The notes: a model not told the origin generated them from the letters alone. A DNA stretch of 36,418 nt from Myxococcota bacterium (GCA_047619425.1 JBLHOB010000001.1:1-36418), one strand, 5' to 3'; numbered from the stretch's first letter, positions 769 through 16,565 are shown. Numbers and translations: made by a program.

Positions 769-1383
769 CTAGCTCTGTGTCGAGCTCAAGCGCTTCTCTT
801 CGGCCTGCTCAAACAACTGCTGGACGTCGGAAAGACAAACCAGCAGGCGTCGATAGAGGCGCACTTTGACGCCTTCCAGCACCGAGTAAGCGACCAATGC
901 AAAGACACTCGAGATGAGCGCCACCGCCAATGCTCCAAGTTCAAGCGTGCTGTCGGCCATGTGCATTGAAAGAAACAGAATCAGCATGCCGCCGGTTGTC
1001 CCGACGAACCCGATCGGCGGCAACAGACTCGCGTACATCGAGATCAAACTCGAATAGTTCGACGTGTACTCGTTGCTCGCGTATTGGCGAGAGGCGTCAA
1101 ACACGAAATCACTGGGATACTGATCGCCGCCATCGTTTTGGCGCATCGATTTGCGAAGCACACGCATCATCAACACCGAAATCGGCTCGGTCCCGCCTTC
1201 GACCTTTGCTTGCGAGCTCTTCTTGGTGAGTTCAGCGGCGGTCAAACGTTCCGTCGCTTTCCACGCCTGCATGCATACCCGTAGACCGCGTATGAATGGA
1301 ACCCACACCGCTCCAACGGCCAACACCGTCAACATCATCATGACCCACTGGTCTGGGAATGCAGACCCAACAGACTCCGGCAC
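769..1383 (-). CDS. MotA/TolQ/ExbB-family proton-channel protein (divergent, 204 aa)
   Basis: There are three predicted TM helices: WVMMMLTVLAVGAVWVPFI, PPIGFVGTTGGMLILFLSM and LGALAVALISSVFALVAYSVL. The P-x-GxxGTxxGM pattern before TM2 and the TM3 spacing resemble ExbB/TolQ. A GTG start lies 3 nt after the upstream stop. Confidence 0.6.
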   Translation of the reverse strand: MPESVGSAFPDQWVMMMLTVLAVGAVWVPFIRGLRVCMQAWKATERLTAAELTKKSSQAKVEGGTEPISVLMMRVLRKSMRQNDGGDQYPSDFVFDASRQYASNEYTSNYSSLISMYASLLPPIGFVGTTGGMLILFLSMHMADSTLELGALAVALISSVFALVAYSVLEGVKVRLYRRLLVCLSDVQQLFEQAEEKRLSSTQS

Positions 1384-1386
1384 GTC

Positions 1387-1935
1387 CTACCCCTTCCACT
1401 TTCGCGTGGCCAAGATCTCCAGGCCCCGCTCGAGAGTCCCCTGCTTACCAATGGGGTACTCGATCAATAATTCATTCTGGCCTCGATACCGAAGCTCGAT
1501 TTCGTCGCGCACCATTTGTACGCGACTCGGATAACGCATTTGGATCAACACCTCGGCTTCGAGAAAGCGCAGGCTCGCGTCTTTCGCCATCAACTCGGGG
1601 TGACTGCTCTGCCACTCGCTGCGCAGCAGCGGTGCCAGGTGCACGGCCATGTAACGGTCGACGAATCGGTCGAGCTCAGAAAGCGCGCGTCCGTCCTTGC
1701 GATCGATCAAGCTCTGCATCGTGCGATGGATGTGGACCATGTCGCGGTATGCGCGATCCAGATCGTGTTTGCGTTGGTCGAGAGCGGCACCGCCGAGCGG
1801 CCCTTCGTCGAGGATTACCGCTGCACGCGTGTCCTGCTCCGGGAGTGCCGCGCATCCAACAGACAAAGCACCGAGCAGGCTCGCTGTAGTGAGAAGGATG
1901 GCAGCGCGGCTTGGTACCCATTTCGTCAGTTGCAT
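1387..1935 (-). CDS. Lipoprotein of unknown function (182 aa)
   Basis: Signal peptide with lipobox LLGALSVGC. A GGGGGA Shine-Dalgarno lies 9 nt upstream. The start is 4 nt after the upstream stop. I recognise no family. Confidence 0.6.
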   Translation of the reverse strand: MQLTKWVPSRAAILLTTASLLGALSVGCAALPEQDTRAAVILDEGPLGGAALDQRKHDLDRAYRDMVHIHRTMQSLIDRKDGRALSELDRFVDRYMAVHLAPLLRSEWQSSHPELMAKDASLRFLEAEVLIQMRYPSRVQMVRDEIELRYRGQNELLIEYPIGKQGTLERGLEILATRKWKG

Positions 1936-1939
1936 TGGG

Positions 1940-3985
1940 TTATTCCCCCTGCTCGTAGAACTTGCGGCGAAGAAGTGTGTGAACTGGATGTTCCCGCTGG
2001 CTACGCAGAGCCGGGATCAAATTGTCGCTCTCGAATATCGCGCCATAGAGCGGGATCGCGGCATTGCGGCCTTCGATCTGTTTGTTGAGCTTTGCGACCA
2101 ACCGGTGCAACTCGGTCACGCGCTGCACCAAGGTCGACTTTTCCATTTGCAGCTCGCGTCGAGCCGGTGCGTTGGGATCGACTTTGGCCGGGGACGTCGA
2201 ATGCGCTTCGATGGTTGCCTCAACAGCGGCGCGGCGCGAATTCAAGGTTTGGATCTTCGCCGCCAGCTCGTCGCGCTTGCCTACGAGCTCGCGCAAGCCG
2301 TCGCGCAGTTCATCGAGACTCGACGCTTCAGCGAAACCGAGATACATGATCACGAGGTCATCTATCAGTGCAAGCCGGATGGCCGCGATCTCGTCGGAGT
2401 TGCTCTCACTGTTGTCGATCCAATTCGCAACGTACCGCGAACGCACGACCGAATCGGCAACCGGTCGCGCCCGGCCAAGGTATTCGTTCGAGCGTCCTTG
2501 TCTCTCGAGTGCGGAAGCAAGCGAGCTCCACACCTTGCGGTCAAATGGGTAGGTCCTTAGCGCCTGCCCGTAGCGCGCGGTCACCATCTCGATTTCGGCG
2601 CTCGTGATATTGCCCGAGGAAAACGAGAGGAACGCATCGCCGTAGCCTTTGGCAGCTTCGTATGCGGCGAAGTAGGCCGAGTTTGGAACCAGGGCCATGC
2701 CTTCCTGTACGGCGAACTCGTCGAAGAACGAGAGATAGCTTGCGTAGATGCGAGCGGCGCTGCGGACGTGGTCGTCTCTTGCACCCGGCTCGGTTTGACT
2801 TCGAGCGAGGTAGTAGTCGGCGGCGTTCAGGCTTGCCTCTTGGATCTCTTCCCACAATCGATGCTGCGCCTGTACATAAGCTTTGTGGCCCGTCATGCGA
2901 AAACCGAGTTCGAGCCAGGCTTCGTCGTTGCGCGCCGAATAGAGCGTGCGATAGACGTCCATCGCCTCGTCGATCGTAAACGGACTCTCAACGTATGGAT
3001 CGACCTGCAAACGCTGCTTGGCAGCGTAGATTTCGCCAATCTGTCGCAGCACGCGCGTAAAGACCGCCGCCTCGCCCTGTGGAGTCTCGGCGCGATTCAA
3101 AGCAGTTTCGTACGCGCCACTCGCGATGCCCATGGCCTTTACGGTGTCGCTGTTGAGGCCTCGACTCGCCAACAAGCCTCGCGCGGCTTCGTGATGTCGC
3201 GCGGCTTCGAAAAGAGCCAGCGTAAAGGTCAAGCTACCGCCGTCTGACTCGGCACCGTCAAGACGGTCGACGATGCGGTTCAGGTAGGGCCTTGATGACG
3301 CATCAAGCGGGATCACGTCGGGATGCCCACCGACGCGTCCGTCGTGGAGCAAACGCACGACCGCCGCCAAGGGGTCGAGGTCGCGACTCATCCCTCGCTC
3401 CTGGCTGCGGATCATGATCAAGCGCGCGATGTTTTCGTAGAGGTAGGGCAGCGCCGAGACAAAGCCCGAGTTGGGCGACTGGCTGAGAGACAAGGCCGAA
3501 AGCGACTCGTAGGAACTTTCCAGCGGCGACACAACATCGAGCCACATGTCCATGATGTTGCGCACGAAGGCGTCGGGGTTGCCCGCTTCGAGAGCGCGAT
3601 GGGCCATGATGTAGCGATACCAGTAGAGGTTTTCATGGCGGCCGATTTGGCCCTTGAACGTCTCGATTGCATCAACACTCTTCTCGAGCGCGTCAACGTC
3701 GCGAGTCGTCAAATATTTCAAGAGGTATGCAATCGCCTGTCGGCGAATCGCGACTTCGTCCAGGGGCTCCCCGGATGGAATCTCGAACTTCTCGATAATG
3801 TAGTCATCGAGGCTGACGCCGGCTTCGCTTCCGTAGTCATCAAAACGCTGCGATAGCGTTGCCGCGTCAGCGGAAGAATAGATGTAGGCGAAGTCGAGAT
3901 AGTCGGCCCAGAGTGATGAATCTGCGGCGTGGCTTGACGTTGCAAGCCCTGCGTTCATCACAGCCACTAACACGAGTGCGCGCAT
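1940..3985 (-). CDS. Secreted all-helical (TPR-like?) protein with a C-terminal coiled coil, unknown function (about 681 aa)
   Basis: The ORF is 1940..4006. The likely start is the ATG at 3985 (MRALVLVAVMNAGLATSSHAADSS signal peptide), preceded by GGGGAG 7 nt upstream. The C-terminus (LRELVGKRDELAAKIQTLNSRRAAVEATIE...VTELHRLVAKLNKQIEGR) looks like a coiled coil. Confidence 0.6.
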   Translation of the reverse strand: MRALVLVAVMNAGLATSSHAADSSLWADYLDFAYIYSSADAATLSQRFDDYGSEAGVSLDDYIIEKFEIPSGEPLDEVAIRRQAIAYLLKYLTTRDVDALEKSVDAIETFKGQIGRHENLYWYRYIMAHRALEAGNPDAFVRNIMDMWLDVVSPLESSYESLSALSLSQSPNSGFVSALPYLYENIARLIMIRSQERGMSRDLDPLAAVVRLLHDGRVGGHPDVIPLDASSRPYLNRIVDRLDGAESDGGSLTFTLALFEAARHHEAARGLLASRGLNSDTVKAMGIASGAYETALNRAETPQGEAAVFTRVLRQIGEIYAAKQRLQVDPYVESPFTIDEAMDVYRTLYSARNDEAWLELGFRMTGHKAYVQAQHRLWEEIQEASLNAADYYLARSQTEPGARDDHVRSAARIYASYLSFFDEFAVQEGMALVPNSAYFAAYEAAKGYGDAFLSFSSGNITSAEIEMVTARYGQALRTYPFDRKVWSSLASALERQGRSNEYLGRARPVADSVVRSRYVANWIDNSESNSDEIAAIRLALIDDLVIMYLGFAEASSLDELRDGLRELVGKRDELAAKIQTLNSRRAAVEATIEAHSTSPAKVDPNAPARRELQMEKSTLVQRVTELHRLVAKLNKQIEGRNAAIPLYGAIFESDNLIPALRSQREHPVHTLLRRKFYEQGE

Positions 3986-4006
3986 GGTTTGACTCCCCAT
4001 GTCCAA

Positions 4007-5320
4007 TTACTCCAAGCACGCCAAGGCGTGGGTCAATTCAGTACATCGGTCGGACTGCTTGCGTCCCTGCGAACGTTCAATCCACATGGAAAAAGCGTTC
4101 AGGTTCTTGGTCTCGACAAATCGATAGGTGCCCGCCGAACTAACGCAGGCTTCTCGGTTCCTTACGGCCGTCAATACACGTTGCTTGAGGAGATCCTCTT
4201 CGCGATCGCTCATACAACTGGCCAATGAGCCGAGAGATACACCTCGCAGTGACATCTGGCTCTCGGAACCCCGAGGGCGTACCGGGGCAGCGTCTGATGC
4301 AGCCGACCGACGCGAGGTCGAGGCCATTTGAAGTGTGTTCGCCGGCGACCCTCGAGGCGCAAGCGCTGCGGGCGCCATCGCGAGCGAAGCTGCACCACGC
4401 CGCTTTGGGGCAGCGGGCGCGGCCGTCACGCGCTGACTTCTGGCCTGACTCGGCGTATGTTGCGCAAGCGTGGGGGCGCTCGCAGCCGCGACCTGAACGA
4501 TCGAACGACTTGAACCGCCGCCCGATCGGACGGAAGTAAACGCCGGCAAAGCGGCGCGCGATCTACGGGGCGCCGACGCTTCCGGGGCGAGCGTCTGCGC
4601 AGCAACCGCAGCCAAGACCGGAGCGGCTTTTGCTTTCCTCGCTGCACCCGACGTGGCTGCAACGCGTCCGGAACGCGCGCGCTTGGTCGCAACGGGTTGG
4701 GACGCCAACGCGCTCATGCCAGACGCCGGTAGCGCGAGCGCCTTGCGGCGTTCGGGGCTCGTCGCCTCAATACGAGATCGCGACTTGGGTGCAACCTCGG
4801 CGAGCTTGGGGGCGCTTAGAGCAGCCATCTCGATCTTCGGGACTCGGCGGGCCTTGGGAACTGGTTTAGGAGCCACCTTGGGTGCCGGAGGCGGTGTCGC
4901 CTTCTTTGCGATCTTCTGCGGCGGCGGCGCGAGCTTTGGCTTTGGTGCGGGCTTTGCCTTTGCGACTTTCTCTTCGACAGCCTTTTTGACGACAGGCTCG
5001 GGCTTCTTCACCACCACGGGCACGGGTGCTTTTGCAATCACGGGAGGCGGGGCCACAGCGGATGGCTTTGGGTCCTGCCACATCGCGATCTGGGTATGGG
5101 AGAAGTCGACGCGATCGCGCAGCGCGGTCACCGCGAGCGTGGCGACCAACACAAGGCCAAAGACAACGAAGGCCTTCATGCTGCCGAGAAAGTCGGGGCC
5201 TGCCTCGCGACAGCCGGCAATAAACGAGGGCTCAACCTCTGACTCCCGATAGGGCTCGGGACATAAGACGACGCGCGCGGCGCCGTGACCGTAACGTTTG
5301 CGGATCTGCCAGTCGGGCAC
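4007..5320 (-). CDS. TonB-like membrane-anchored protein. It has a Pro/Lys-rich spacer, a long Ala/Arg/Ser low-complexity linker and a Cys-containing C-terminal domain that is not TonB-type.
   Basis: The GTG start abuts the TAA of the upstream ExbD-like gene. There is a single TM helix (MKAFVVFGLVLVATLAVTAL), then APPPVIAKAPVPVVVKKPEPVVKK...KPAPKPKLAPPPQKIAKKATPPPAPKVAPKPVPK. The start could instead be the ATG at 5179. Confidence 0.55.
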   Translation of the reverse strand: MPDWQIRKRYGHGAARVVLCPEPYRESEVEPSFIAGCREAGPDFLGSMKAFVVFGLVLVATLAVTALRDRVDFSHTQIAMWQDPKPSAVAPPPVIAKAPVPVVVKKPEPVVKKAVEEKVAKAKPAPKPKLAPPPQKIAKKATPPPAPKVAPKPVPKARRVPKIEMAALSAPKLAEVAPKSRSRIEATSPERRKALALPASGMSALASQPVATKRARSGRVAATSGAARKAKAAPVLAAVAAQTLAPEASAPRRSRAALPAFTSVRSGGGSSRSIVQVAAASAPTLAQHTPSQARSQRVTAAPAAPKRRGAASLAMAPAALAPRGSPANTLQMASTSRRSAASDAAPVRPRGSESQMSLRGVSLGSLASCMSDREEDLLKQRVLTAVRNREACVSSAGTYRFVETKNLNAFSMWIERSQGRKQSDRCTELTHALACLE

Positions 5321-5794
5321 TTAGAACTCCGAGATCCGCGCCACCAACGCACGTCGGCGTCCGGGCCAATGCTCTTCGAGCAGAGCCACGGCGTCGAGCA
5401 GATCCTGGCTTCGAGAGTCTTCGTGGGGCGCAAGCAAGGGCTTGTTCTCCCCGTCCTTAAGCAGTGTTGCTACGTGATCGCGAATCGAAGCAATATCTCC
5501 GCGCACAACTTCCTCAGGTGCAGTCCCCGCGCGCATCAGCGCAAAGGCACCCGTTTGCGCTGCGTCGGGTGCAGACTTCGGATAGATGCGCAGTTGCCAG
5601 CCTTTGCCTGCATCCGCTGTCAGGTCTGCAGGCGCACCATCTTCGCCAATTCGTGGAACGACGATTTCGCCCAGATCAGGCGGCTCAGCGCCGACGTCTC
5701 CAGCGAGTTGGGTCATGGCGATCAGCATCAGAAAGGCGAGGTCTACGAAAGAGAAGAGCCACGCGGGCGCCCCGCCACCTTGTTCCGCATCCAT
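5321..5794 (-). CDS. ExbD/TolR-family biopolymer transport protein (157 aa, divergent)
   Basis: Short N-terminus, then one TM helix with an embedded Asp (WLFSFVDLAFLMLIAM), as in ExbD/TolR. This is followed by a periplasmic domain of about 100 aa that ends in a pattern like the ExbD C-terminus (KPLLAPHEDSRSQDLLDAVALLEE). Confidence 0.6.
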   Translation of the reverse strand: MDAEQGGGAPAWLFSFVDLAFLMLIAMTQLAGDVGAEPPDLGEIVVPRIGEDGAPADLTADAGKGWQLRIYPKSAPDAAQTGAFALMRAGTAPEEVVRGDIASIRDHVATLLKDGENKPLLAPHEDSRSQDLLDAVALLEEHWPGRRRALVARISEF

Positions 5795-5882
5795 CTTTTA
5801 AAGTCTCCAGCGAGGATGCGGCCAAGGGCCCTGCTACTTCGCGTTGGGGGGTTCTTCGCGGGGCCGAGTCGTAGTGATCAGG

Positions 5883-7427
5883 TCACGGAGTCCGCAGGGG
5901 TTCGAACGCAATCAGGTTGTCTCTGGGTGCGCTCTGTCCGAGAGTCCAGTTCGGCAGAAGGGTCTCAAATTGTGAGTCAAGTCCGTGCAAAGCTAGGTAA
6001 TTTAGGATCACCGCTTCGGTGAGCGCGGCGGGGCGATTGCTGATCTCGGTTGCATCAACATCGACGGAGCCTTCGTTGCTGAAGAAGCCGATCTGTTGCC
6101 GCACACCTGCGAGTTGCAGTGGGTCGTTGACCATCAGTGGACGCCCAGCAATTTCATCCTTGCTGTAAACCAACATGAATGCTGCAGCGGTGCTGGAGTT
6201 GTCGCCCTTCCAAATCCCTTTGCCTCCGCCGTTGTTGTCGATCTGCCCGTCTGAAGCGACCGAGCCATCGCTATACACATAAAGAACAAGGTCGTTGCAA
6301 CTGCGCGCGGCGTACTCGAGGCACGCACCAATCGCTTCGCCTGCACGTCGATCTCGCGCTTCGCCGGTAGCGCGAGTGCTGTCGTGATAGTCATAGCCCC
6401 CGAGCTCAATCACGCCGGCGCCAACATGTTGATTGATAACAAGCTTCATAATCGCAGCGGTCTTTTCAAAAGTGCTTTGATTGAAATCGCCGGCGTCAAA
6501 AATGCTGTCTACTTGACCCGTGATGATGGGGTCAAGCATGGGGTCAAGGGCGTCGGGGGAGCTGTAGAGTTGCACCAGCTCTGAGCTGTCCGCATAGGCA
6601 GCGCGAAGTAAGGACGTCGCAAGCGCTTGCTCGCCAAGAGCGTCGAGTCGATCGAGCTTGCGATTCGAAATCGCTTCCGCTGCCTGGACGACTCGCCCCG
6701 CTCCGTACTCGTCGAGGAACTCTGCCATACGGCCGGCATCGACGAGGCCAGTTGCGTCCGCGGCGCGGCGCACTTGAGTGGGACGCATCGTGGGGTCGAG
6801 CATGGAGCTCGGTGCCATGGAGTTGCCGCCGCTATCAGACGCACGCGAGCCGATCAATTGAAGCAGCCCACCATTCGCACCGACTTGACCAATGCCGTAG
6901 AGGGGGTTGAGTTCGTTGTTGCCCGTGTCGTTGAGAGACCGCGAACAAAAAACGGTGCCGTTTACTCGCGAGCGCGTACCAACACTTGTGCGCGAACGAA
7001 TGCCGTCGAGCATTGCGCTGTCGGAGTGAAACAAAAGCCCGAACTCACTGTCAATCACAGACGTGATCGAACCCTGGGGAGTGAAATCTTCGGGCAGCCC
7101 CAGCTTCGAGTAGCCGGCTAGGGAAAGTAGGTCTTGCTGACCTTGTGGGCCGCCGACCAGAACGTTCGAGCCGGCGATGTTGGCGCCGCCTGCTAGATCA
7201 AAACCGATGAAGGGGATCATCCCCGCTCCACCTATGGGAGACGTACAGGGAGCAAATTGCGCCTGCGCTTCACGGCCCCCAAGCAACCCAAGCAGGCTTG
7301 GTGCCAAAACCGTTGCGGCTCCAGTCATGAAGCCCTGCCCCAGGAACTCTCGACGTGTAACCGGGCGCTTGTGGCCGTCGATAAACAATGGGGCATTTTC
7401 CTGCCCCTTGAGAGTTGTCTTTTTCAC
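5883..7427 (-). CDS. Tat-signal periplasmic protein, DUF1501/DUF1552-like (planctomycete-type, alkaline-phosphatase-like fold suspected)
   Basis: The ORF is 5883..7535. The likely GTG start is at 7427, with GGAG 7 nt upstream and 14 nt after the LamG gene stop. The twin-arginine motif is VTRREFLGQGFMTGAATVLAP. It has FIGFDLAGGANI and ELGGYDYHD motifs that recall DUF1501. The family call is tentative. Confidence 0.5.
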   Translation of the reverse strand: MKKTTLKGQENAPLFIDGHKRPVTRREFLGQGFMTGAATVLAPSLLGLLGGREAQAQFAPCTSPIGGAGMIPFIGFDLAGGANIAGSNVLVGGPQGQQDLLSLAGYSKLGLPEDFTPQGSITSVIDSEFGLLFHSDSAMLDGIRSRTSVGTRSRVNGTVFCSRSLNDTGNNELNPLYGIGQVGANGGLLQLIGSRASDSGGNSMAPSSMLDPTMRPTQVRRAADATGLVDAGRMAEFLDEYGAGRVVQAAEAISNRKLDRLDALGEQALATSLLRAAYADSSELVQLYSSPDALDPMLDPIITGQVDSIFDAGDFNQSTFEKTAAIMKLVINQHVGAGVIELGGYDYHDSTRATGEARDRRAGEAIGACLEYAARSCNDLVLYVYSDGSVASDGQIDNNGGGKGIWKGDNSSTAAAFMLVYSKDEIAGRPLMVNDPLQLAGVRQQIGFFSNEGSVDVDATEISNRPAALTEAVILNYLALHGLDSQFETLLPNWTLGQSAPRDNLIAFEPLRTP

Positions 7428-7441
7428 AGTCGGTCTCCGGC

Positions 7442-9616
7442 CTAGTGAACCATGATCGGTGCGCTGGATAGCACCGCCGTACACATGCCCTTGGCGATCG
7501 CGAGTGTTTCCTCGACACCACAAGGAGCAACGCAATTCGTGACGAGGTCGTCGCGCAATACGTCGAGGTCGCTCGTTACTTCCTCCCGCAAGGGCTGATC
7601 GTCGAGTTGTTGCACGCCCAACATGCGCCCCGACAAGCGCTCGGACATCAGGTCGGCAAGGGCCGTGTTGCCATAGGCGGTCGCAACGTCGCTTTCGAAG
7701 AACGATGGGCTTCCCGCCTCGAACTCACTGCCGAACACCGCTTCTCGCTCGGTGGGCAGATCGACGAGTTCGACGCAGTACTCAAAGGCCAGCTTGGTAA
7801 GGCCCACCTGATGGGACGAAACGATCGAGCGAACATCAAATGACGCAGGCAACTGCTGCTTCACTTCTTCGTAGATATCCTGAATGGGATCAATCACGCC
7901 CGGATCGATCGCGCGATCGGCCAGCGGATCGACACCGGTCAACTCAGCCATCGTTGCATTGATGCGGGCAAAATCGCGAAAGCCAGCTTCTGGCGGAAGA
8001 GCGAGGGCGCTTGCGCTGGGCTCGTAGCTGAGCACCGTCGGGTCAATCGGATCTTCAAACAGAGCCAGTTCCTCGAATTCGACCGAGAAGGTGTCGGTCA
8101 GGGGGCTACTCCCCTTCGGTATGACGGAGCAACCTCGTGACACTTGATCTTGTTCTCCCGACAGGGACTGGTCGACATTGACGAACGATTGGCCTGAAGC
8201 CGGAGCTTCAACGCCATCGCCCGGGTTCACAACCACGCGAATGTTCTTGACGCGAATGCCGCCGAGATCGCTTCCGACGAAGGTCGGTTGGCAGAAGAGG
8301 TAGCTGCTCCCGTCGAGTTCGGTGACGGAGAACTCGAGGTTGGTATTCGTTCCCGTCCAGTCTCCGACGTCGAAGGAGAGCACCACCCGCTTACCCACAC
8401 CCGCGAGATAGTTGCGGTGAATCTGGTCCTGGGACAAGGCCTGCTTGTAGATCGCGAGCATGCGAATCTGCCCACGCCAAAAGTTGTTGCTGCCGTTTCG
8501 ATTCGAGCCGACGTAGAGCTCAGCATCGGGGTTCCAGTTCCAAAGTCTCGCCCCACCAATGGGGTCGATGTCGCCGGTGTAGTTCGAGTCGACATAGATT
8601 CGGCGGCCGTAGTGAGAGTCGTAGGTGATGACGACGTGCTGCAGCGTTTCTTGGGCATCTTGGTCGTCGGGGTCCGTGGCCACCTCGATCCGCCCGTCCA
8701 ATTCGCTGCCCGGCGCCATCGACCGGTTCCGCACGCCGTACTGATACTCTTGCTGGTGCAGGGAGACATTGCGATCGCCGCTGCTTCGGCCGTACGTCAA
8801 AATTCGCGCGTTCTCTTGCGTCACGTTTGCGTTGTTGACCCACATCTCAATCGAGTATTGCCCGGTTCCATATCCCGGTTTGGCAATTTTGTCGTAGAGC
8901 TTCTGACCATCGTCATCATCAGATCGCAAGCGCGAGCCGTCCATCACCAGACCGTAAGCGCCCATCCACTCCGCGTTGACGATGTCGAGATCCATGGCGG
9001 GAGACACACCACTTGTATCGTGAGCAATTTCGCCGGTGCCTTCCTTAAAACCGTAAAACGCAATCAGGTTGCCTCTGTATCGCTCGTCATTTTCGATCTC
9101 TTCGCCGTCGACAAAAGCTACTTCGCGACTTTCAATTGAAGCCACCTGAAGCTGTTCACCCGACTCTTCACTGGCTTCGACGATCGCGGCCCACGCTTCA
9201 ACGGCAGTGAGCATTTCGGCGCCGATGGCGACGCACTGGCTTCCACATTGGTGAAAATCTGCGGCGGGCCGGCGAACCACGCGAGACTGCGCGGGGTTGC
9301 TGAGGTTGACCTTGCTTGAGCCGGTGATCACCTGGTAGGCCGTGCCGAGGCTCGAGCTCGCGAAGAGAAAGGGAGCGCCACGCGCACCCGAATCGTGGCA
9401 ACCGTCGCCACAGTACCGAGTCACGACGGGATAGACCGTGGCCTCAAAAGCTTCGGCTTGCGCGGATTGACTCAGCCCCGGAGGCGGTCCGAGGGTCGTG
9501 GTACTCGCCTCTTCTTCCTTTCCGCCATCGTAGCTGCCGCAACCAACCAATAAAGCGATTGTGACAAGCATGCAGCTGGCGTTGAGAAGACGATGTGAGC
9601 TCGCAATGTGCTTCAT
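7442..9616 (-). CDS. LamG/concanavalin-A-like jellyroll domain lipoprotein with an N-terminal cytochrome-c-like segment
   Basis: Start MKHIASSHRLLNASCMLVTIALLVGC (lipobox), 5 nt after the upstream stop. There is a CGDGCH motif at 9395..9412. The central region (LIAFYGFKEGTGEIAHDTSG...QYSIEMWVNNANV...LYVGSNRNGSNNFWRGQIRMLAIY) is typical of LamG-like jellyroll domains. Confidence 0.65.
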   Translation of the reverse strand: MKHIASSHRLLNASCMLVTIALLVGCGSYDGGKEEEASTTTLGPPPGLSQSAQAEAFEATVYPVVTRYCGDGCHDSGARGAPFLFASSSLGTAYQVITGSSKVNLSNPAQSRVVRRPAADFHQCGSQCVAIGAEMLTAVEAWAAIVEASEESGEQLQVASIESREVAFVDGEEIENDERYRGNLIAFYGFKEGTGEIAHDTSGVSPAMDLDIVNAEWMGAYGLVMDGSRLRSDDDDGQKLYDKIAKPGYGTGQYSIEMWVNNANVTQENARILTYGRSSGDRNVSLHQQEYQYGVRNRSMAPGSELDGRIEVATDPDDQDAQETLQHVVITYDSHYGRRIYVDSNYTGDIDPIGGARLWNWNPDAELYVGSNRNGSNNFWRGQIRMLAIYKQALSQDQIHRNYLAGVGKRVVLSFDVGDWTGTNTNLEFSVTELDGSSYLFCQPTFVGSDLGGIRVKNIRVVVNPGDGVEAPASGQSFVNVDQSLSGEQDQVSRGCSVIPKGSSPLTDTFSVEFEELALFEDPIDPTVLSYEPSASALALPPEAGFRDFARINATMAELTGVDPLADRAIDPGVIDPIQDIYEEVKQQLPASFDVRSIVSSHQVGLTKLAFEYCVELVDLPTEREAVFGSEFEAGSPSFFESDVATAYGNTALADLMSERLSGRMLGVQQLDDQPLREEVTSDLDVLRDDLVTNCVAPCGVEETLAIAKGMCTAVLSSAPIMVH

Positions 9617-9621
9617 CACGA

Positions 9622-10812
9622 TTACAAACCCTCCGAGCAATACGCTGCGGTGTCCGCAAACACGTCCATCATGTCGTAGCCGTTGGTTTCAAAATCCTGT
9701 CGAATGTTTTCGACTTCGGTTCGGTCGTCGAGATCCGATGGAGCCCTGAAGCAAACCTGCTCGAACACTTTCTCGACGTGACAACGCGAGAACGCCTCGC
9801 TGTCGACGATTTGCTGACCGAGCGACTGCGCGCCGAAGCCCTGGGTCGCTGCTGTGCGCCAGCCGAGGATCGAATTCGACCCCGAGCGCCAGTAGTTATG
9901 CCACTGGTCATCGACCGTCACGTAACCAAAGGGGAAGGTATTCGCGTTGATGAGATACTTGTCCTGCACATCGCCTCGGGTGTATTCAACGCGGCCCGTG
10001 TCTTCTTCACCAACCCAGTTGAAGTACGCAAAGGCGCCGGCGAGGGGATCCATGCCCGCATGACATCCCGAACAGGAGTCGAGGAAGATCTGGCTATCGC
10101 CGCCCGGGCTTCGCGTAACATCCTGACGAATACGATCATTGGGTACGGCGTTGTCCTGCAGCGCTTCCATGTCGCGGCACAGATGGTTCATCATCGTGAA
10201 GCGGAACATCGCTCGGTTGGTGCCGTCTTTGAAGAATGCCTTGCCGGCTGCTCGCGTCGTCATGACCCCGGCGGCTTCGTCCGCGCGCAGCCAGTTCGGT
10301 GAAAGTTCCGATTGCAACCGTGCCTCAAGCACATTTGAACTCGAAAGGTCCGAGCCGTTCTCTTCAAGCGCCTCGTAGTGAGCATTGCTGCTGAAGGAGT
10401 AGCCGGGCGTTTGAGTGCGGCCGACGTAGATCACGTCACCAGTCAGCACTTCCTTAAACGAACGTCGGTCGCGAATGATGCCGATTACAGTCGCGGTGTA
10501 ATCGTTCAGCGGTGCAAAAATCGTCTGGTCTTCGTTGGTCCAGGGCGTCACGTAATTTTTGAGCACGACGTTGTAGAAGTTCGGGTCCAGCATCGCGAGC
10601 TCTGCTGCGGCCTCAGGGTCACCATCGGTGATGAGCTGTGCCATCTCGCCGAGTGTGAAGTCGTCCGGCGGTACCCCCACGAGCCGGTCGTGCATGCGCT
10701 TGGCTCGTTCAAAGCTTCCTGCCTGTGCGTTGCCGACGAATGCGAAAAAAGCACCAAAGACGAGGGCGAGGCCTGCGCGGTACCACATCCGATTTCCGCA
10801 ACGAACCTTCAT
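9622..10812 (-). CDS. Secreted CxxCH-motif protein, planctomycete PSD/DUF1585-like
   Basis: The ORF is 9622..10860. The likely ATG is at 10812, with GGAG 5 nt upstream. The signal peptide is MKVRCGNRMWYRAGLALVFGAFFAFVGNAQA. CSGCHAGMDPLAGAF (CSGCH at 10060..10074) matches the C-x-x-C-H...DP-x-G signature I associate with DUF1585-type domains. Confidence 0.55.
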   Translation of the reverse strand: MKVRCGNRMWYRAGLALVFGAFFAFVGNAQAGSFERAKRMHDRLVGVPPDDFTLGEMAQLITDGDPEAAAELAMLDPNFYNVVLKNYVTPWTNEDQTIFAPLNDYTATVIGIIRDRRSFKEVLTGDVIYVGRTQTPGYSFSSNAHYEALEENGSDLSSSNVLEARLQSELSPNWLRADEAAGVMTTRAAGKAFFKDGTNRAMFRFTMMNHLCRDMEALQDNAVPNDRIRQDVTRSPGGDSQIFLDSCSGCHAGMDPLAGAFAYFNWVGEEDTGRVEYTRGDVQDKYLINANTFPFGYVTVDDQWHNYWRSGSNSILGWRTAATQGFGAQSLGQQIVDSEAFSRCHVEKVFEQVCFRAPSDLDDRTEVENIRQDFETNGYDMMDVFADTAAYCSEGL

Positions 10813-11070
10813 AGTGACTCCATGTAGCGACCCCGCTCGACAAACCCTCGCCGAGTACAACTCAACAAGTTCCGGTGCATTGTGTAATCGGAACCTCGAT
10901 CCTCTACTCGGTGATCCGAATCACATTCATGGGATCCCAACCGTCCGATTTTCCAAACAGTTCGCCCGATCTGCAGTGAATGCGCATAAGGACGGCAAGT
11001 GGGTGAAAGCCCGGTAAATTTATTGCCGCTCGTGTCGATAACAGGACGGGACTATGAGGATCCTCTCAAC

Positions 11071-13374
11071 ATGATTTCAACGGTCACGCCACGCACCCGA
11101 CTCGTCACAAGCATGTTCGCAATGCTCGTGTGCTTGGCCGTATGCGGCGCGGGGCACGCTGCGACTCCTCAATTGGCACTGCCGGTGGGTGCTTCATTCG
11201 GAGTTGGTGACGAAGCAACACATCTTCGTGCCTTCTTACTCATCAACACCGAAGAGGACTCGCCGCAAATCAACACTGCGGGCATTGGCGTGTTGTTTGA
11301 ACTCGAGGAAGGCTGGCACCTCTACTGGAAGAATCCCGGAGACACGGGCCTTGCTCCCGAGATCGAGATTGACGCAGGGGGTGCAGAGGTTGCGGCGCTC
11401 GAGTGGCCAACACCGTTGCGCTTCGCGACGCCGGGAACTTCGCTCGCAAGCTACGGCTACAGCGACCGTGTGCTTCTGGCCAGCCGCGTTTCAAACTACA
11501 ACCAAACGCGACACGTCACAGTCGATGTCGACCTGCTCCTGTGCAAAGACGAATGTATTCCGTTCACGTTTTCCCTCGAAAGAGAAAGGCCAAATGAAGG
11601 CTCGCGCTCAACAGAGCAACGAGAAAATGAAAGTCAGGTGTTCGGGCAATTCAGAGAGCTTATTCCCAAGCCAGCGGCGGATATTGGTCTCGGTGTCCGC
11701 GCGGAGTTCTCGCCTCCTGAGCTGCAGCCTGGGGACAGCTTCGAAGCAACGCTGACCCTCACCCCGTGCGTGCACGGCCCGGCAGGCTGCACGCCCTTTG
11801 CGCCAACCGGTGCGCAGCCGTTCATCCCCGATCTCAAGACGGACGAAGCAATCGACCTCACGTATCTCGGCTCCTCCCCCAACCCCGCCGATCCAACGGA
11901 GTCATTGCTCCGGTTCCGGGGAGAAGTGGACAACGACGCCGATGGGTTGGCGACTCGTTTCGCAGGCCTACTTTCACTAGAGCGAGCCGCTGGTGATCTC
12001 GTGTCGGTTGTGGTCGATGTTCCGACAACCACACTACAAACCGCGGCAGGGTCACCGTCGGCCATCATCGCTGCTGGATCGACCGCTCCCCAAGCACCGC
12101 TACCCGCCAACAGCGGCACGAGCCTCCTCGGCGTCATCGCGCTGGCACTCCTCGGCGGCTTGATCTTAAACGGCATGCCGTGCGTGCTGCCGATACTCGG
12201 GATCAAAATTTGCTCGGCGGCCGAACTCGCCCAACATGACAAAGCGCAGTTGCGACGACACGGCGCCGCGTATCTGCTCGGTGTCCTGCTATCGATGGCC
12301 GTGCTCGCTTTCGCAGTAATCTTCCTCAAAGCAATTGGCGCAAGCGTCGGCTGGGGCTTTCAGTTTCAAGAGCCGTTGTTTGTCGGCATCGTTGCAGGGG
12401 TTGTCGTGCTCTTTGCCCTCAACTTGTTTGGCGTCTTTGAGATCGGACTCGAGACCTCATCGCTGAGCCAAGTCGGAGCAACCGCCCAGGGCCCCGCACG
12501 AAGCTTCTTTGACGGCTTGCTTGCAGTGGTGCTCGCAACGCCCTGCACTGCCCCCTTCCTCGGCACCGCGGTCGGCTTTGCCTTCGCGGGCGGCAGCGCA
12601 ATGATCATCGCCACCTTCCTCGCAATTGGCGTCGGTCTCGCATCGCCCTATGTCTTGATTTGTCTGATTCCCGGTTGGTCGCGCTTTGTTCCGCGCGCGG
12701 GTAATTGGATGCTTCGCTTACGCGCAGCAATGGGCTTTTTGCTTCTCGCGACGGCTGTGTGGCTCGTATGGGTCTTCGGCCGGAGCACGGGTGCGGACAG
12801 TCAAGCGGCATTGCTCGCCGTACTCGTCGCACTCTCATTTGGAGCGTGGCTATTTGGCTGGGTTCAAAGCCAAGGCCAACCGCGCACAACGTTTTCCGCA
12901 GTCGCCGTACTTTTCGTCTTTGGCATGATCTCATTCAATCGAATCGACGTTGAACCCATCCCCGCGGCAAACGTCGCCCCCAATGCTCGCTGGAAGACCT
13001 ACGACGCAGATGCAATCAAGCAAACCCTCGCAGACGGCTCCCCGGTATTCGTGAGCTTCACTGCTGACTGGTGCATTACGTGCAAAGTAAACGAGAGAGG
13101 CGTCCTTGCAGACGATCGAGTCCTTAACGCGCTCTCGGCCGCGGGCTTCGTAGCCTTTCGCGGCGACTGGACACAACGCGACGAGGCGATCCGCAGAGAA
13201 CTTGCCAAGCACGGCCGAGCCGGCGTACCCCTCTACCTTGTCTACGACCCCCGCACCCCAAACCACCCCGAGGTGCTCCCTGAGCTTTTGAGTGTGAATC
13301 TCGTGCTCAGTTCGCTCGCCGGGGCCTCGCCCGCTGCCCCCGAAAAACCACAAGTTGCGGCTCGCGCCACGTAG
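11071..13374 (+). CDS. dsbD: Protein-disulfide reductase, DsbD family (three-domain)
   Basis: The ATG at 11071 (MISTVTPRTRLVTSMFAMLVCLAVCGAGHA) lies inside ORF 10999..13374. The N-terminal domain has WHLYWKNPGDTG and LLCKDECIPF. The CcdA-like membrane core has the two Cys motifs NGMPCVLPILG and LATPCTAPFLG. The C-terminal thioredoxin domain has FTADWCITCKVNE. Confidence 0.9.
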   Translation: MISTVTPRTRLVTSMFAMLVCLAVCGAGHAATPQLALPVGASFGVGDEATHLRAFLLINTEEDSPQINTAGIGVLFELEEGWHLYWKNPGDTGLAPEIEIDAGGAEVAALEWPTPLRFATPGTSLASYGYSDRVLLASRVSNYNQTRHVTVDVDLLLCKDECIPFTFSLERERPNEGSRSTEQRENESQVFGQFRELIPKPAADIGLGVRAEFSPPELQPGDSFEATLTLTPCVHGPAGCTPFAPTGAQPFIPDLKTDEAIDLTYLGSSPNPADPTESLLRFRGEVDNDADGLATRFAGLLSLERAAGDLVSVVVDVPTTTLQTAAGSPSAIIAAGSTAPQAPLPANSGTSLLGVIALALLGGLILNGMPCVLPILGIKICSAAELAQHDKAQLRRHGAAYLLGVLLSMAVLAFAVIFLKAIGASVGWGFQFQEPLFVGIVAGVVVLFALNLFGVFEIGLETSSLSQVGATAQGPARSFFDGLLAVVLATPCTAPFLGTAVGFAFAGGSAMIIATFLAIGVGLASPYVLICLIPGWSRFVPRAGNWMLRLRAAMGFLLLATAVWLVWVFGRSTGADSQAALLAVLVALSFGAWLFGWVQSQGQPRTTFSAVAVLFVFGMISFNRIDVEPIPAANVAPNARWKTYDADAIKQTLADGSPVFVSFTADWCITCKVNERGVLADDRVLNALSAAGFVAFRGDWTQRDEAIRRELAKHGRAGVPLYLVYDPRTPNHPEVLPELLSVNLVLSSLAGASPAAPEKPQVAARAT

Positions 13375-13511
13375 GAAACTACTCCCGATAAAGCCCTGCC
13401 GAGCGTACAAAACGATGCATTTCGTGATCGCCATCACAATTGGATAAGCGTCGGGCGCCGTAATGGCGAAGAGCAACCTGCAATGGCAGAACTGCCCAGG
13501 AGCTCGATCCA

Positions 13512-14072
13512 ATGCGAAAACCGACATCTTCTCCTTCCCGGACGGGCGCAGCAAAAGCCCGCCTCGCGCGCGGCACAACGGCCCTGCTCGCGGCAACGAC
13601 GTTCATGATCGCCACAATGCTTGTGACAACCCAAGCCAGCGCGATTGAGCCCGGCGAGAAAGCTCCAACCTTCAACGCACGCAAGCTCGACGGCAAAGGC
13701 ACGCTTGGACTCGCGCAGTACCGCGGGAAGGTTGTCTACCTCGACTTCTGGGCCTCGTGGTGCGCGCCTTGTCTCAAGGCCGTCCCCGCCATCGAAACGC
13801 TTCGCGGTGAGTTCCCTGCTTCGAAGTTTCAAATCCTTGCGGTCAACGTCGACAAGAAAACCAAGAAGGCCCTCAAATTCTTGGCCAAGCACGACGTTGG
13901 CTACCCGAGCGTGTCGAACCCCAAGGGCGACATCCCCGGCAAGTTTGATCTCGAGACCATGCCGAGCTCCTACCTAATCGACGCCAACGGTGTTGTGCAG
14001 TACGTGCACAAAGGCTTTCGCGACGGCGACCTCGACATCATTCGCGAACACGTGCGAAAGATCATTAAGTGA
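13512..14072 (+). CDS. TlpA/ResA-like periplasmic thioredoxin (thiol:disulfide oxidoreductase)
   Basis: N-terminal signal/anchor. Motifs VVYLDFWASWCAPCLKAVP (a WCxxC active site) and the AhpC/TSA-redoxin-like LAVNVD...YPSVSNPKG. Confidence 0.85.
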   Translation: MRKPTSSPSRTGAAKARLARGTTALLAATTFMIATMLVTTQASAIEPGEKAPTFNARKLDGKGTLGLAQYRGKVVYLDFWASWCAPCLKAVPAIETLRGEFPASKFQILAVNVDKKTKKALKFLAKHDVGYPSVSNPKGDIPGKFDLETMPSSYLIDANGVVQYVHKGFRDGDLDIIREHVRKIIK

Positions 14073-14296
14073 TCCGGCTGGCACGCACGATCTCGCTTCT
14101 CGGAGTCCTTGCTTTTTGCATCGGCGCAACGGGTTGTGTCGCGGTCAAGCCTTGGGAGAAGGATCTCCTGGCCAAGCCCGGCATGGCGTGGAGTGACGAC
14201 GCGCGCCTCTCAACGATCCAGTCCCATATCGGCTTCAGCAAAGAAGCGTCCCTTCCTGCCGGTGGCGGTGCCGCCGGTGGCTGTGGATGCAACTAG
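14069..14296 (+). CDS. Small lipoprotein, DUF4266-like, with a Gly-rich tail ending in GCGCN
   Basis: The GTG start overlaps the tlpA-like stop (GTGA). The lipobox is IGATGC. The extreme C-terminus PAGGGAAGGCGCN resembles the DUF4266 family as I remember it. Confidence 0.65.
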   Translation: MIRLARTISLLGVLAFCIGATGCVAVKPWEKDLLAKPGMAWSDDARLSTIQSHIGFSKEASLPAGGGAAGGCGCN

Positions 14297-14308
14297 GGCT
14301 GCCGACAG

Positions 14309-15571
14309 ATGATTGACCAACGACCCAAGAATCGACGCGCGCGTCGCCTCGCAAACCGCGGGCGCAAACGCACGATTCTCGCGGCACTCTCGAGTGCTGC
14401 AATCGCACTTCTCTCGGGCCCGCTGTCTTCTACAGCCAACACCCCGATCGAAAAGCCCGCGATCGGCTACTCCTATTCGTATTACAAAGAAGACCCGATC
14501 GCGAAAAGTAAGGTCGCGTTTGGCAGCAAGTCGCGGTACAAGATCAAGACCCACCAAGTGTCGGTCGAGATGCCCATCAACGAGAGAGCCGACATCGGCA
14601 CGGACTTCATCTACGAAAGCATGAGTGGCGCGACACCTTGGTACGTTACGCGCGACGAAAACACCGGCAAACCGCTGCAGGCGATGTCCGGCGCGACGGT
14701 GAGCGAGAAGCGCTTCGACGCGACGCTAAAGAGCAACTACTACTTTGACAGTGCGCGAACGGGCGCTCACGTAGGTGTATCAAAAGAGCGCGACTATCTC
14801 GCCGTTTACGCCGGCGTTAACGGCGAATACTCCCTTAACGAAAAGAACACGACGCTTAGCGGAGGCCTCGGTTTTTCGATCGACAAGATCAAACCCACAG
14901 GAGGCGGAGCCAACGGCCGCATCAACAGTGATGACAAGCAATCCCTGTCGATGAATGCCGGCATTTCCCAGATCATCAACCGACGCTCTACGGTGCAGAC
15001 ATCACTCTCGTACAAGCTCGGCAAGGGTTTTCTCTCTGACCCCTACAAGCGCGCGCTCATCGACCCCGTTTTAGGCATCACTGTGTCAGACAAGCGCCCG
15101 GATGAACGCCATCAGGTCTCGTGGCTCACGCAGTATCGCTATCACTTCGAATCGGCCAACGCGAGCCTGCACGCCGACTACCGCTTTCACTATGACGATT
15201 GGAAGGTCAACTCCCACACCTTCAGCGCCAAGTGGGTTCAAAACTTGCTGAGCGACTACATCCAGATTATCCCGAGCCTGCGCTACTACTCGCAGAGCCA
15301 AGCGTATTTTTACAAGCCGTTCTATTCGTCTCTTCGCAACGACGAGCTAGCCTCAAGTGACTATCGACTTTCCCCCTACGGGAGTCTCACATTGGGAATG
15401 CGAATGCAGTTGCGGATCGAAGACCTGCCGTGGGAATGGGACTGGCGACTCGGTGTCAATTACGAACGACACCTCTCGGATGCCAAGTGGGCGCTTGCCA
15501 AGGTGAGTACCAAGAACCCGGGCCTCGTCGACTACCATTTCGTATACGGCACGTTGGACGTTAGGTTTTAG
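14309..15571 (+). CDS. Predicted outer-membrane beta-barrel protein, DUF3570-like
   Basis: Arg-rich signal region (KNRRARRLANRGRKRTILAALSSAAIALLSG). The body has an alternating aromatic/polar pattern throughout. The C-terminal ...YGTLDVRF ends in an aromatic residue, as in OMPs. There are two MSGAT motifs at 14621..14635 and 14684..14698. Confidence 0.65.
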   Translation: MIDQRPKNRRARRLANRGRKRTILAALSSAAIALLSGPLSSTANTPIEKPAIGYSYSYYKEDPIAKSKVAFGSKSRYKIKTHQVSVEMPINERADIGTDFIYESMSGATPWYVTRDENTGKPLQAMSGATVSEKRFDATLKSNYYFDSARTGAHVGVSKERDYLAVYAGVNGEYSLNEKNTTLSGGLGFSIDKIKPTGGGANGRINSDDKQSLSMNAGISQIINRRSTVQTSLSYKLGKGFLSDPYKRALIDPVLGITVSDKRPDERHQVSWLTQYRYHFESANASLHADYRFHYDDWKVNSHTFSAKWVQNLLSDYIQIIPSLRYYSQSQAYFYKPFYSSLRNDELASSDYRLSPYGSLTLGMRMQLRIEDLPWEWDWRLGVNYERHLSDAKWALAKVSTKNPGLVDYHFVYGTLDVRF

Positions 15572-15575
15572 GCCG

Positions 15576-16517
15576 TTGATACGGCATCACGCCACGCTCG
15601 CTGCTCTCGGTAGTCCGTGCGAGTTCCAATTGTATGGTGAGTCCGAGGACCGACTCGCAGAAGTTTCCGCGGGTGCCGCGGCCGAGCTCGAGAGGATCGA
15701 AACCAAGTACTCCCGCTATCGCGAGGGTAGTCTGTTGAGTGAGATCAATCGCCGCGCAGGCACAGGCCAGTTCGTCTCCCTCGACAACGAAACCATCGGT
15801 CTGCTCAACTATGCGCAAACCGCATTCGATCAAAGCGGTGGTTTGTTCGACATCACTTCGGGCGTGCTGCGTCGCGCATGGGATTTCAACAGCCAAACCC
15901 TGCCCGCCAAGGAGACGCTGCGCGAGTTGTGCGAACTCGTCGGCTGGCAGCACGTAACTCTCACAGAAGGCGCAATTCATCTTTCGCACACCGGGATGGA
16001 AATCGACTTCGGCGGATTCGGCAAGGAATACGCCGCCGACCGCGTCGTTGCGTATTGTCGCGAACAGGGAATTGCCGCGGGCCTCATCGACCTCGGTGGA
16101 GATGTCTGCGTCATTGGTCCACATCCCGACGGACGCCCGTGGCAGATAGGCATTCGCGACCCGCGAAACCCCGAAGCCGCACTCGCCTCGCTTCCCCTGG
16201 GTCGCGGCGCGTTGGCGACCAGTGGCGACTACGAGCGCTTCATGGAAGTCGACGGCAAGCGCTACTGCCACCTGCTCGACCCGCGCACAGGCTGGCCCGT
16301 TGAAAGTCTCTCAGGCGTAAGCGTCGTGGCAGAGCAGTGCCTCGTCGCGGGCACGGCAACCACCGTCGCAATGCTCAAGGGAAAAGGCGGGGCCGCCTGG
16401 CTTCGCAAGCTTGGCTTGCCGCACCTATACATTGACAAGGACGGCCACAGGGGTGGGACGATGTGGCCGAAGCAGCGCTCCGCGAAGACGCCTGCGCCTG
16501 CGCATCGGCAGGTCTAA
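15576..16517 (+). CDS. apbE: FAD:protein FMN transferase (ApbE family)
   Basis: LGSPCEFQLYG...ELERIETKYSRYREGSLLSEINRRAG...FDITSG...GFGKEYAADRV...IDLGGD...ATSGDYERF...YCHLLDPRTGWP are the conserved ApbE blocks. A TTG start lies 5 nt after the upstream stop. The open frame holds no signal peptide. Confidence 0.85.
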   Translation: MIRHHATLAALGSPCEFQLYGESEDRLAEVSAGAAAELERIETKYSRYREGSLLSEINRRAGTGQFVSLDNETIGLLNYAQTAFDQSGGLFDITSGVLRRAWDFNSQTLPAKETLRELCELVGWQHVTLTEGAIHLSHTGMEIDFGGFGKEYAADRVVAYCREQGIAAGLIDLGGDVCVIGPHPDGRPWQIGIRDPRNPEAALASLPLGRGALATSGDYERFMEVDGKRYCHLLDPRTGWPVESLSGVSVVAEQCLVAGTATTVAMLKGKGGAAWLRKLGLPHLYIDKDGHRGGTMWPKQRSAKTPAPAHRQV

Positions 16518-16565
16518 GCAGCAGACGATTAGGTGATCGTGTCCGAATCGCTTGCGGCTCGCCGG

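Follow-up and report, generated by a model that had tools for sequence, protein, structure and literature searches.

A candidate Tol/Ton-like motor module beside an envelope redox gene cluster in Myxococcota

Analysis of a 36,418-nucleotide stretch of DNA from a Myxococcota bacterium (GCA_047619425.1, JBLHOB010000001.1:1-36418; hereafter the window) indicated that a 10-kb run of eight genes at 769-10812 is two modules placed end to end, a triad of exported proteins (g1-g3) and a five-gene motor module (g4-g8), and that the run adjoins a third module, a cluster of redox genes. The g4-g8 genes constitute a real motor module that is so far uncharacterised, and we interpret it, with moderate confidence, as a Tol/Ton-like energiser, specific to its lineage, that has become attached to an envelope redox system. 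Proton motors of 5:2 stoichiometry are increasingly found behind many envelope processes, and g4-g8 adds a clade-specific version with several unusual properties: its stator genes are not adjacent, its TolR-like subunit escapes sequence profiles, and the head of its transducer has no match among solved structures. Its linkage to a DsbD/DUF3570/ApbE flavinylation system also provides a concrete hypothesis for the role of that system.

Translation of the window identified eight collinear open reading frames (ORFs), all on the minus strand, which we numbered g1 to g8 from 10812 down to 769. The junctions computed from the ORF coordinates were 5, 14, 88, 0, 21, 4 and 3 nt, and the starts agreed with independent gene calls on public contigs of identical DNA, in which the products of g1 to g8 are 396, 725, 514, 157, 437, 681, 182 and 204 residues long (g2 being 724-725 residues overall). 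An earlier note on this DNA had described this layout, and both the gene calls and the ORF coordinates bore out the eight genes and all of the junction lengths it gave. Its statement that each product carries an export signal or a transmembrane (TM) anchor was likewise evident in the translations. The note had further taken the eight genes as a single unit, a view that could not be upheld because the triad normally occurs without the motor (5 of 80 metagenome loci had both) and is distributed separately from it. The seam between the two modules is the 88-nt gap at 5795..5882. It showed no site resembling a promoter or a terminator; a scan across the eight genes returned fewer such sites than shuffled sequence did, and the scan is therefore uninformative on the gap. 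Where g3 and g4 homologues were adjacent in other loci, the median gap between them was 63 nt.

The division into two modules was supported by the distribution of the genes. A scan with the g6 alignment, limited to one genome per species, retrieved 79 loci, all from Myxococcota or 'delta' metagenome-assembled genomes (MAGs), and all carriers of the motor were uncultured MAGs. Greedy ORF picking among the flanking genes was noisy in DNA of such high guanine-plus-cytosine (GC) content. The order g4-g5-g6-g7-g8 was collinear in all 51 loci that had the five genes, with median gaps of -4, 24, 17 and 30 nt from g4 to g8. Conservation of gene order across genomes thus held for g4-g8, but not for g1-g3, whose position varied or which were absent: the triad was directly upstream of the motor, as in the window, in about 20 loci and 2-8 kb downstream of it, on either strand, in about nine, and there was none within 10 kb in the remaining loci, which included all of the paralogous copies of ~39% identity. 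Of 26 orthologous loci from Myxococcota whose flanks were complete, 22 had the triad and/or the DsbD-thioredoxin-DUF3570-ApbE genes within 10 kb of g4-g8. In some genomes the g4-g8 module was present in two to four copies (e.g., L012/L080, L054 and L086 in one MAG).

A second scan, of metagenomes with a g3 alignment of 12 sequences, retrieved 80 triad loci. In every locus long enough to hold all three genes g1-g2-g3 was collinear, and the GC content of the 19 loci measured ranged from 0.40 to 0.70. Profile hidden Markov models (HMMs) of g4, g5, g6, g7 and g8 detected no remote homologues in the motor-free metagenome triad loci. Because g1-g3 were found across unrelated contigs and the motor in five loci only, the triad is an autonomous and widespread module and the motor is clade-specific. 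Wherever the upstream sequence of a metagenome locus sufficed (23 of 23), thioredoxin and DUF3570 genes adjoined the triad, and 20 of these 23 loci also had a gene for an HZS_alpha/PD40 propeller protein. The earlier note had regarded g1-g3 as clients of the motor; given their constant thioredoxin and DUF3570 companions, they are more plausibly components of the redox system next to them (DsbD/thioredoxin/DUF3570/ApbE).

Pfam and NCBIfam were applied to all eight proteins of the run, and Pfam gave matches in just three: g8 (MotA_ExbB), g2 (Laminin_G_3) and, below the cutoffs, g1 (PSCyt3/PSD2). Nothing in either database matched g3 to g7. As had been claimed, no TonB-dependent receptor and no TonB_C, TolA, TolB or Pal/OmpA domain was identified by these two databases in the eight proteins. 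The absence of an outer-membrane barrel held within 769-10812 but did not extend to the neighbourhood, where 14309-17396 codes for a DUF3570 protein, probably a barrel, and an OMP_b-brl protein.

Within the motor module, g8 (769..1383, 204 residues) was recognised by both Pfam and a profile search as a TolQ/ExbB/MotA-like stator subunit of the pentamer type. Its score against Pfam MotA_ExbB (PF01618) was 24.2 bits, compared to a cutoff of 22.9, and a profile of 69 homologues had its best match to TolQ (8odt, E=0.004), with weaker matches to MotA and PomA. The protein has three hydrophobic stretches, the three TM helices of the earlier note, and the GTxxGM pattern reported there is GTTGGM at residues 128-133. 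Residue T129 of this motif was T in 60 and N in nine of the 69 sequences, position 159 was S or T in all 69, and both positions aligned with polar pore positions of TolQ TM2 and TM3 (the GTV and IAT segments). We conclude that g8 is a member of the TolQ family.

Its proposed partner, g4 (5321..5794, 157 residues), is classed as a TolR/ExbD-like axle-type subunit on two grounds, an Asp in its TM helix and a fold resemblance that is weak. The AlphaFold2 (AF2) model has one TM helix, a flexible linker and a small alpha/beta periplasmic domain, and its predicted local distance difference test score (pLDDT) was 72.8 overall and >90 in the periplasmic domain. The Asp in the TM helix that had been pointed out earlier is Asp18, which was invariant in two homologue sets of 54 and 60 sequences, as were W12, L13, F14 and F16 around it; hhalign placed D18 opposite ExbD D25 and TolR D23. 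The 30 best Foldseek matches of the model included, repeatedly as the best compact folds, the periplasmic domains of TolR (2jwk, 5by4) and ExbD (8vgc, 8p9r, 8pek, 8vgd), with target-normalised TM-scores (TMt) of about 0.5-0.54 (0.41 for 8pek) and a best E-value of 0.33. E. coli ExbD, TolR and TonB sequences served for these comparisons; against the PDB, the ExbD sequence was identical at 140 of 141 residues and the TonB sequence was identical. Canonical ExbD/TolR genes were also sought in the retrieved loci for a comparison profile, and none was found there. The invariant Asp18 and the TolR/ExbD-like, if weakly matched, model fold tie g4 to ExbD/TolR, and it is probably a functional analogue and a very remote homologue of these proteins rather than a demonstrated member of their family. 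On this evidence the reading of g8 and g4 as a split stator, already put forward in the earlier note, stood up: the two look like a TolQ/ExbB plus TolR/ExbD-type pair.

The product of g5 (4007..5320, 437 residues) is the candidate force transducer of the module, based on homologue alignments and an AF2 model. It starts with a cytoplasmic segment that is conserved (motif W-R-I..Y-G-F-G-A-A-R-V), followed by a single TM helix (FVVFGLVLVATLAVTAL in the window, with no His), a linker of ~270 residues that is rich in Pro (12-26%) and Ala (16-26%), and a C-terminal domain of ~80 residues, and so has the layout of the TonB and TolA transducers: an N-terminal TM anchor, a Pro-rich linker and a globular C-terminal domain. 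The C-terminal domain contains four invariant Cys, is probably disulfide-bonded and was modelled in the order alpha-beta-beta-beta-alpha with a pLDDT of 82. No Foldseek TM-score to a PDB fold exceeded 0.33, no PDB sequence matched the domain, and no Pfam family was detected in 55 members. Comparison of g5 with E. coli TonB by hhalign also gave no match. The possibility that this head is a TonB_C or TolA-III domain was therefore rejected, both by sequence (Pfam, PDB and hhalign) and by fold (Foldseek).

Three loci (L039:8595-12537, L043:7242-10913 and L053:8933-12618) had retained g5-g6-g7, and HMMs too detected neither g4 nor g8 in them. The order of genes in all three, on one strand, was DUF3570-ApbE-OMP-g5'-g6-g7 (OMP, outer-membrane protein), which groups g5, g6 and g7 with redox genes in a single putative operon. 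The g5 homologue in these loci had kept its Pro-rich linker and its Cys-containing domain, and its N-terminus was replaced by a His-bearing TM helix (SLLLHGT......L; e.g., SLLLHGTLFALL) that was found only in these three homologues. The helix resembles the S-x3-H-x6-L signature described for TonB-type TM helices (Williams-Jones et al. 2025, PMC12204202). Its presence is consistent with a role of g5 as a transducer that is coupled to a motor and is able to use a generic ExbBD/TolQR one, and the stator-less loci represent a built-in comparison for the pairing of a transducer with dedicated versus generic motors.

The closest published precedent for such a protein is the group of force transducers with a vWA domain that are encoded beside tolQ-like, tolR-like and TPR genes (Williams-Jones et al. 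2025, PMC12204202). Like g5, these have a TM helix, a disordered Pro-rich linker and a head that is not that of TonB. They differ from g5 in the head, which in g5 is a probably disulfide-bonded domain of ~80 residues and not a vWA domain, in the absence of the SHLS motif from the motor-linked form of g5, and in host clade and gene order.

The two remaining genes of the module encode g6 (1940..3985, 681 residues), a protein with a Sec signal, and g7 (1387..1935, 182 residues), a helical lipoprotein with the lipobox SVGC that fell into no known family. The g6 protein of the window had no Pfam match on its own; its profile matched consensus TPR proteins at ~450-510 (E=8e-8) and coiled-coil-type proteins in the C-terminal region at 558-645, which characterised it as a helical TPR and coiled-coil protein. 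The profile of g7 had only weak HEAT/alphaRep-like matches. In homologous loci g7 consistently followed g6, and its location is presumed to be the outer membrane. PD40, TolB and OmpA domains were not found in g5, g6 or g7 by Pfam, NCBIfam or the profiles of g6 and g7. As the earlier note had anticipated, no Tol-Pal or TonB_C family matched g5, g6 or g7 by HMM, with Ttp and Glt sequences not compared directly.

In an alternative reading, g4-g8 would be a diverged system of the Tol-Pal type for envelope integrity, or a paralogue of one, with g8 as TolQ, g4 as TolR, g5 as TolA, g6 as a CpoB-like and g7 as a Pal-like protein, and the redox neighbourhood would be incidental. TolQ is the best sequence match of the three-TM g8, the single-TM partner g4 has its Asp and a model fold with a weak TolR match, g5 has an inner-membrane anchor and is predicted to span the periplasm, and a TPR/coiled-coil protein, the architecture of CpoB, is co-encoded with a lipoprotein. 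Motor copies without redox neighbours exist, and TolA domains are highly variable and CpoB was ancestrally a lipoprotein (PMC12204202). However, the module encodes no TolB-like propeller, g7 has no OmpA-type peptidoglycan-binding domain, and the stator genes g4 and g8 are three genes apart in an order unlike tolQRAB-pal. The g5 head, with four Cys and no PDB match, is not TolA-like, and its TM helix lacks the conserved His. In addition, two to four copies of the module occur in some genomes, unlike Tol-Pal, and a neutral neighbourhood would not be expected to give redox linkage as often as in 22 of 26 loci. We consider the Tol-Pal explanation to be quite unlikely.

The redox cluster begins on the plus strand, divergently from g1. 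Its first gene (10999..13374) encodes a DsbD-type transmembrane thiol:disulfide electron transporter (Pfam DsbD_N, DsbD_TM and Thioredoxin_7) and is followed, also on the plus strand, by a gene for a TlpA/AhpC-type periplasmic thioredoxin (13512..14072; AhpC-TSA, E=1.9e-22, and Redoxin), which is homologous to the thioredoxin gene beside the triad in other taxa. Reading of the next ORF (14069..14296, plus strand) gave a 75-residue lipoprotein that ends in CGC-N and is DUF4266-like by its position and its C-terminal CXC. A DUF3570 protein (14309..15571, plus strand; E=3.5e-68) and an ApbE flavin transferase (15576..16517, plus strand; E=9.5e-77) complete the cluster, and a small outer-membrane beta-barrel protein (OMP_b-brl, E=6.7e-11) of 276 residues is encoded beyond them on the minus strand at 16566..17396. 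DUF3570 proteins are a known substrate family for flavinylation by ApbE, and the one in the window is a probable outer-membrane barrel as judged by its C-terminal ...VRF. Beyond the small OMP gene the minus strand encodes a GAF-PAS histidine kinase (17626-19665).

By composition, 10999-16517 is the five-component cluster published by Meheust et al. (2021, PMC8238504), who described DsbD, thioredoxin, DUF4266, DUF3570 and ApbE as a flavinylation-associated cluster for extracytosolic electron transfer and also gave the description of DUF4266. In that paper flavinylation of a DUF3570 protein by ApbE was shown experimentally and the function of the cluster was left open. All five components are present in the window, and thioredoxin and DUF3570 are the partners of the triad elsewhere; the g1-g3 triad and a TolQR-like motor, on the other hand, are not named as associated genes in the parts of the paper that were consulted.

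The first protein of the triad, g1 (9622..10812, 396 residues), is secreted, with a Sec signal ending AQA, and has a CxxCH motif in which C247, G249, C250 and H251 were invariant. Its similarity to PSCyt3/PSD2 (DUF1588/DUF1585) was weak: the scores of 18.6 bits for PSCyt3 and 17.4 bits for PSD2 reached neither cutoff (27 and 25.8), and PSD2 was detected at E<0.01 in six of 26 relatives. The second, g2 (7442..9616), is a LamG lipoprotein with the lipobox LVGC, a Laminin_G_3 domain (E=1.8e-16) that was present in 26 of 26 relatives, and an N-terminal Cys-x(2-3)-Cys-His motif with C69, C73 and H74 invariant. In one long-read MAG (L005/L015:2869-3851) the g2 homologue was split into fragments of 139 and 188 residues, probably by an assembly frameshift or because it is a pseudogene.

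The third protein, g3 (5883..7427, 514 residues), carries the twin-arginine motif TRREFL for twin-arginine translocation (Tat). Its family is large, with 1165 clusters at 50% identity (E<=0.001), and its invariant residues are D167, a GGYDYH motif (G344, D346 and H348), D387 and D409. Neither Pfam nor the PDB gave a match for the protein, its profile or distant members, and Pfam scans of 25 relatives and of 10 distant members were negative too. The DUF15xx-like label given to g3 in the earlier note consequently found no Pfam support in the window protein or in these other members, and DUF1501/DUF1552 was dropped as an identification, the profile having matched nothing in the PDB either. The g3 protein is a putative enzyme and is probably metal-dependent; from the pattern of invariant Asp and His, we would guess at an alkaline-phosphatase-like metal site. 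The CxxCH-type motifs of g1 and g2 and the Tat export of g3 would fit a periplasmic redox assembly. There is a likeness to planctomycete-type PSCyt/PSD (DUF1585/DUF1588) proteins, both in the weak similarity of g1 around its CxxCH and in its sharing a triad with a Tat-exported protein, but g1 scored below the cutoffs, g3 is not DUF1501/DUF1552, and the LamG gene g2 lies between the two. Neither the g3 family nor the conserved three-gene triad is above any Pfam cutoff, and both are now exposed.

In the mechanism that we propose, g8 and g4 would form a TolQR-like inner-membrane stator of the 5:2 type, driven by the proton-motive force (PMF), and g5 would act as the transducer of this stator, in analogy to TonB/TolA, with an inner-membrane anchor and the Pro/Ala linker extending across the periplasm. 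Where the dedicated g8/g4 stator is present, g5 would use its own N-terminal motif, and where it is absent, a generic ExbBD/TolQR motor would take over. The four-Cys head would then dock on a partner close to the outer membrane, of which g7, g6, the DUF3570 protein and the small OMP are candidates. In this Myxococcota clade the energiser may have been recruited to the DsbD/DUF3570/triad redox system, with a redox or transport outcome; its work might lie in gating, assembly, positioning or access of a substrate, and g1-g3 would be an envelope redox triad that belongs with the DsbD/thioredoxin/DUF4266/DUF3570/ApbE system. In a more specific version, the module would be a third kind of Tol/Ton-like energiser across the envelope: via the TolQR-type stator and a transducer whose disulfide-bonded head matches no solved structure, the PMF would mechanically operate an outer-membrane flavo/haem redox assembly (DUF3570, the small OMP and a CxxCH lipoprotein) and so be coupled to extracytosolic electron transfer or substrate access. 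We regard this version as speculative and, in that form, doubtful.

Several observations count against an energiser attached to a redox system, and against parts of the proposed motor. The hhalign probability of g4 against ExbD/TolR was <1% and the alignment covered the TM helix alone. Neither ExbD nor TolR chains were retrieved at E<=10 by the 54-sequence g4 profile, unlike the control, in which E. coli ExbD found TolR at 1e-13, and the Foldseek E-values of the g4 model were all >0.3, with none <0.001. TonB and TolA chains were absent among the 50 best Foldseek matches of the g5 C-terminal domain, and the TM helix of g5 in the window does not have the S-x3-H-x6-L-x3-S (SHLS) signature of motor binding. 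Because g5 of the window has neither the His motif in its TM helix nor a TonB/TolA fold, its coupling to the stator is a conjecture. With regard to the redox system, neither triad nor redox genes were present within 10 kb in four of the 26 orthologous full-flank loci, nor within 10 kb of the g4-g8 paralogues of ~39% identity, and these cases indicate that the motor is not obligatorily tied to redox genes. Conversely, the triad and the redox system occur without this motor outside this Myxococcota clade. The attachment of the energiser to the redox system is, moreover, proposed from gene linkage in uncultured MAGs.

A narrower form of the energiser reading is a Ton-like uptake system, in which g5 would open a barrel other than a TonB-dependent receptor (DUF3570 or the OMP of ~270 residues) for import or export of a substrate or metal on which the triad and the redox system act. 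As in Ton systems (ExbB-ExbD-TonB and Vibrio TonB2), the module combines a PMF stator with a Pro-rich transducer, the transducer of the stator-less variants has a TonB-like S-x3-H-x6-L helix, and there are multiple paralogous copies, Ton systems being typically multi-copy with specialised paralogues. In 12 Myxococcota loci the small OMP_b-brl gene had a homologue directly beside g4 or the g5 homologue, these neighbourhoods also encode DUF3570, and iron transporters occur in some DUF3570 clusters (PMC8238504). The module departs from Ton systems, however, in having no TonB_C and no TonB-dependent receptor, in a g5 head unrelated to TonB_C, and in a g4 that escapes ExbD/TolR profiles. TtpB/C/D-type proteins were not found by HMM with general libraries, which included no dedicated Ttp models. 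Furthermore, no plug domain or TonB box was identified, DUF3570 is only a probable barrel, as judged by its ...VRF, and the module encodes no transporter for an imported substrate. Uptake of this kind is possible but, in our estimation, unlikely.

The host clade itself raises the alternative of an Agl/Glt-like or secretion-associated motor (for gliding, the spore coat or a secretin) that has no relation to redox. The AglRQS motors of Myxococcota are TolQR-like and work with TPR and TonB-like Glt proteins, and a gene for a GspD-like secretin was upstream of the motor in six loci. The secretin was, however, confined to these six among 29 examined loci, g5 has no TonB_C, unlike the GltG/GltJ-type proteins, and the module has neither additional Glt-like barrels nor a second TolR-like gene, none being present in the loci. 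On the basis of family models and gene content, with Glt sequences not compared directly, we consider a motor of this kind to be very improbable. A Zorya-like or other defence motor was rejected as well, as PADLOC gave no relevant match for g4-g8.

Returning to the wider distribution of the genes, the metagenome triad loci L096-L160 (e.g., L158:159-16776; contigs of GC 0.40-0.70) had the triad beside a conserved divergent operon. This operon encodes an HZS_alpha/PD40 propeller of ~890 residues, an OMP_b-brl plus SH3 protein, a protein of 220 residues with no assignment, thioredoxin and DUF3570, often with ApbE and two large TPR proteins downstream. The triad and the divergent propeller/thioredoxin/DUF3570 operon together look like a widespread, undescribed supra-operon.

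A second family of g4-g8 (~38-43% identity) was present in L072-L079, L081 and L085-L087 and shared genomes with the first family (e.g., L020 with L085 and L025 with L076). Several of the paralogous-copy loci had an RND/MMPL-type transporter gene and a diadenylate-cyclase-like gene as neighbours, as seen by inspection of the translations. Where the triad was absent, the genes upstream of g4 were mostly heterogeneous housekeeping genes (e.g., RNase D-like by translation, and short-chain dehydrogenase) or the secretin gene, which was just upstream of the motor in L049 (5588-8056), L066, L019, L029, L069 and L078; the secretin of L049 has an extra C-terminal segment. Many of the carrier MAG records are labelled Spirochaetaceae or Spirochaetales (L011, L013, L025, L030-L032, L037-L039 and others), and one has the isolate name HK-STAS-MYXO-51. 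As these MAGs have Myxococcota-type loci, the Spirochaetaceae and Spirochaetales labels are probably taxonomic mislabels. At the other end of the run in the window, the minus strand at 1-543 encodes a Na+/H+ exchanger, which starts ~225 nt downstream of g8 and has Na_H_Exchanger and TrkA_N domains on the identical public contig.

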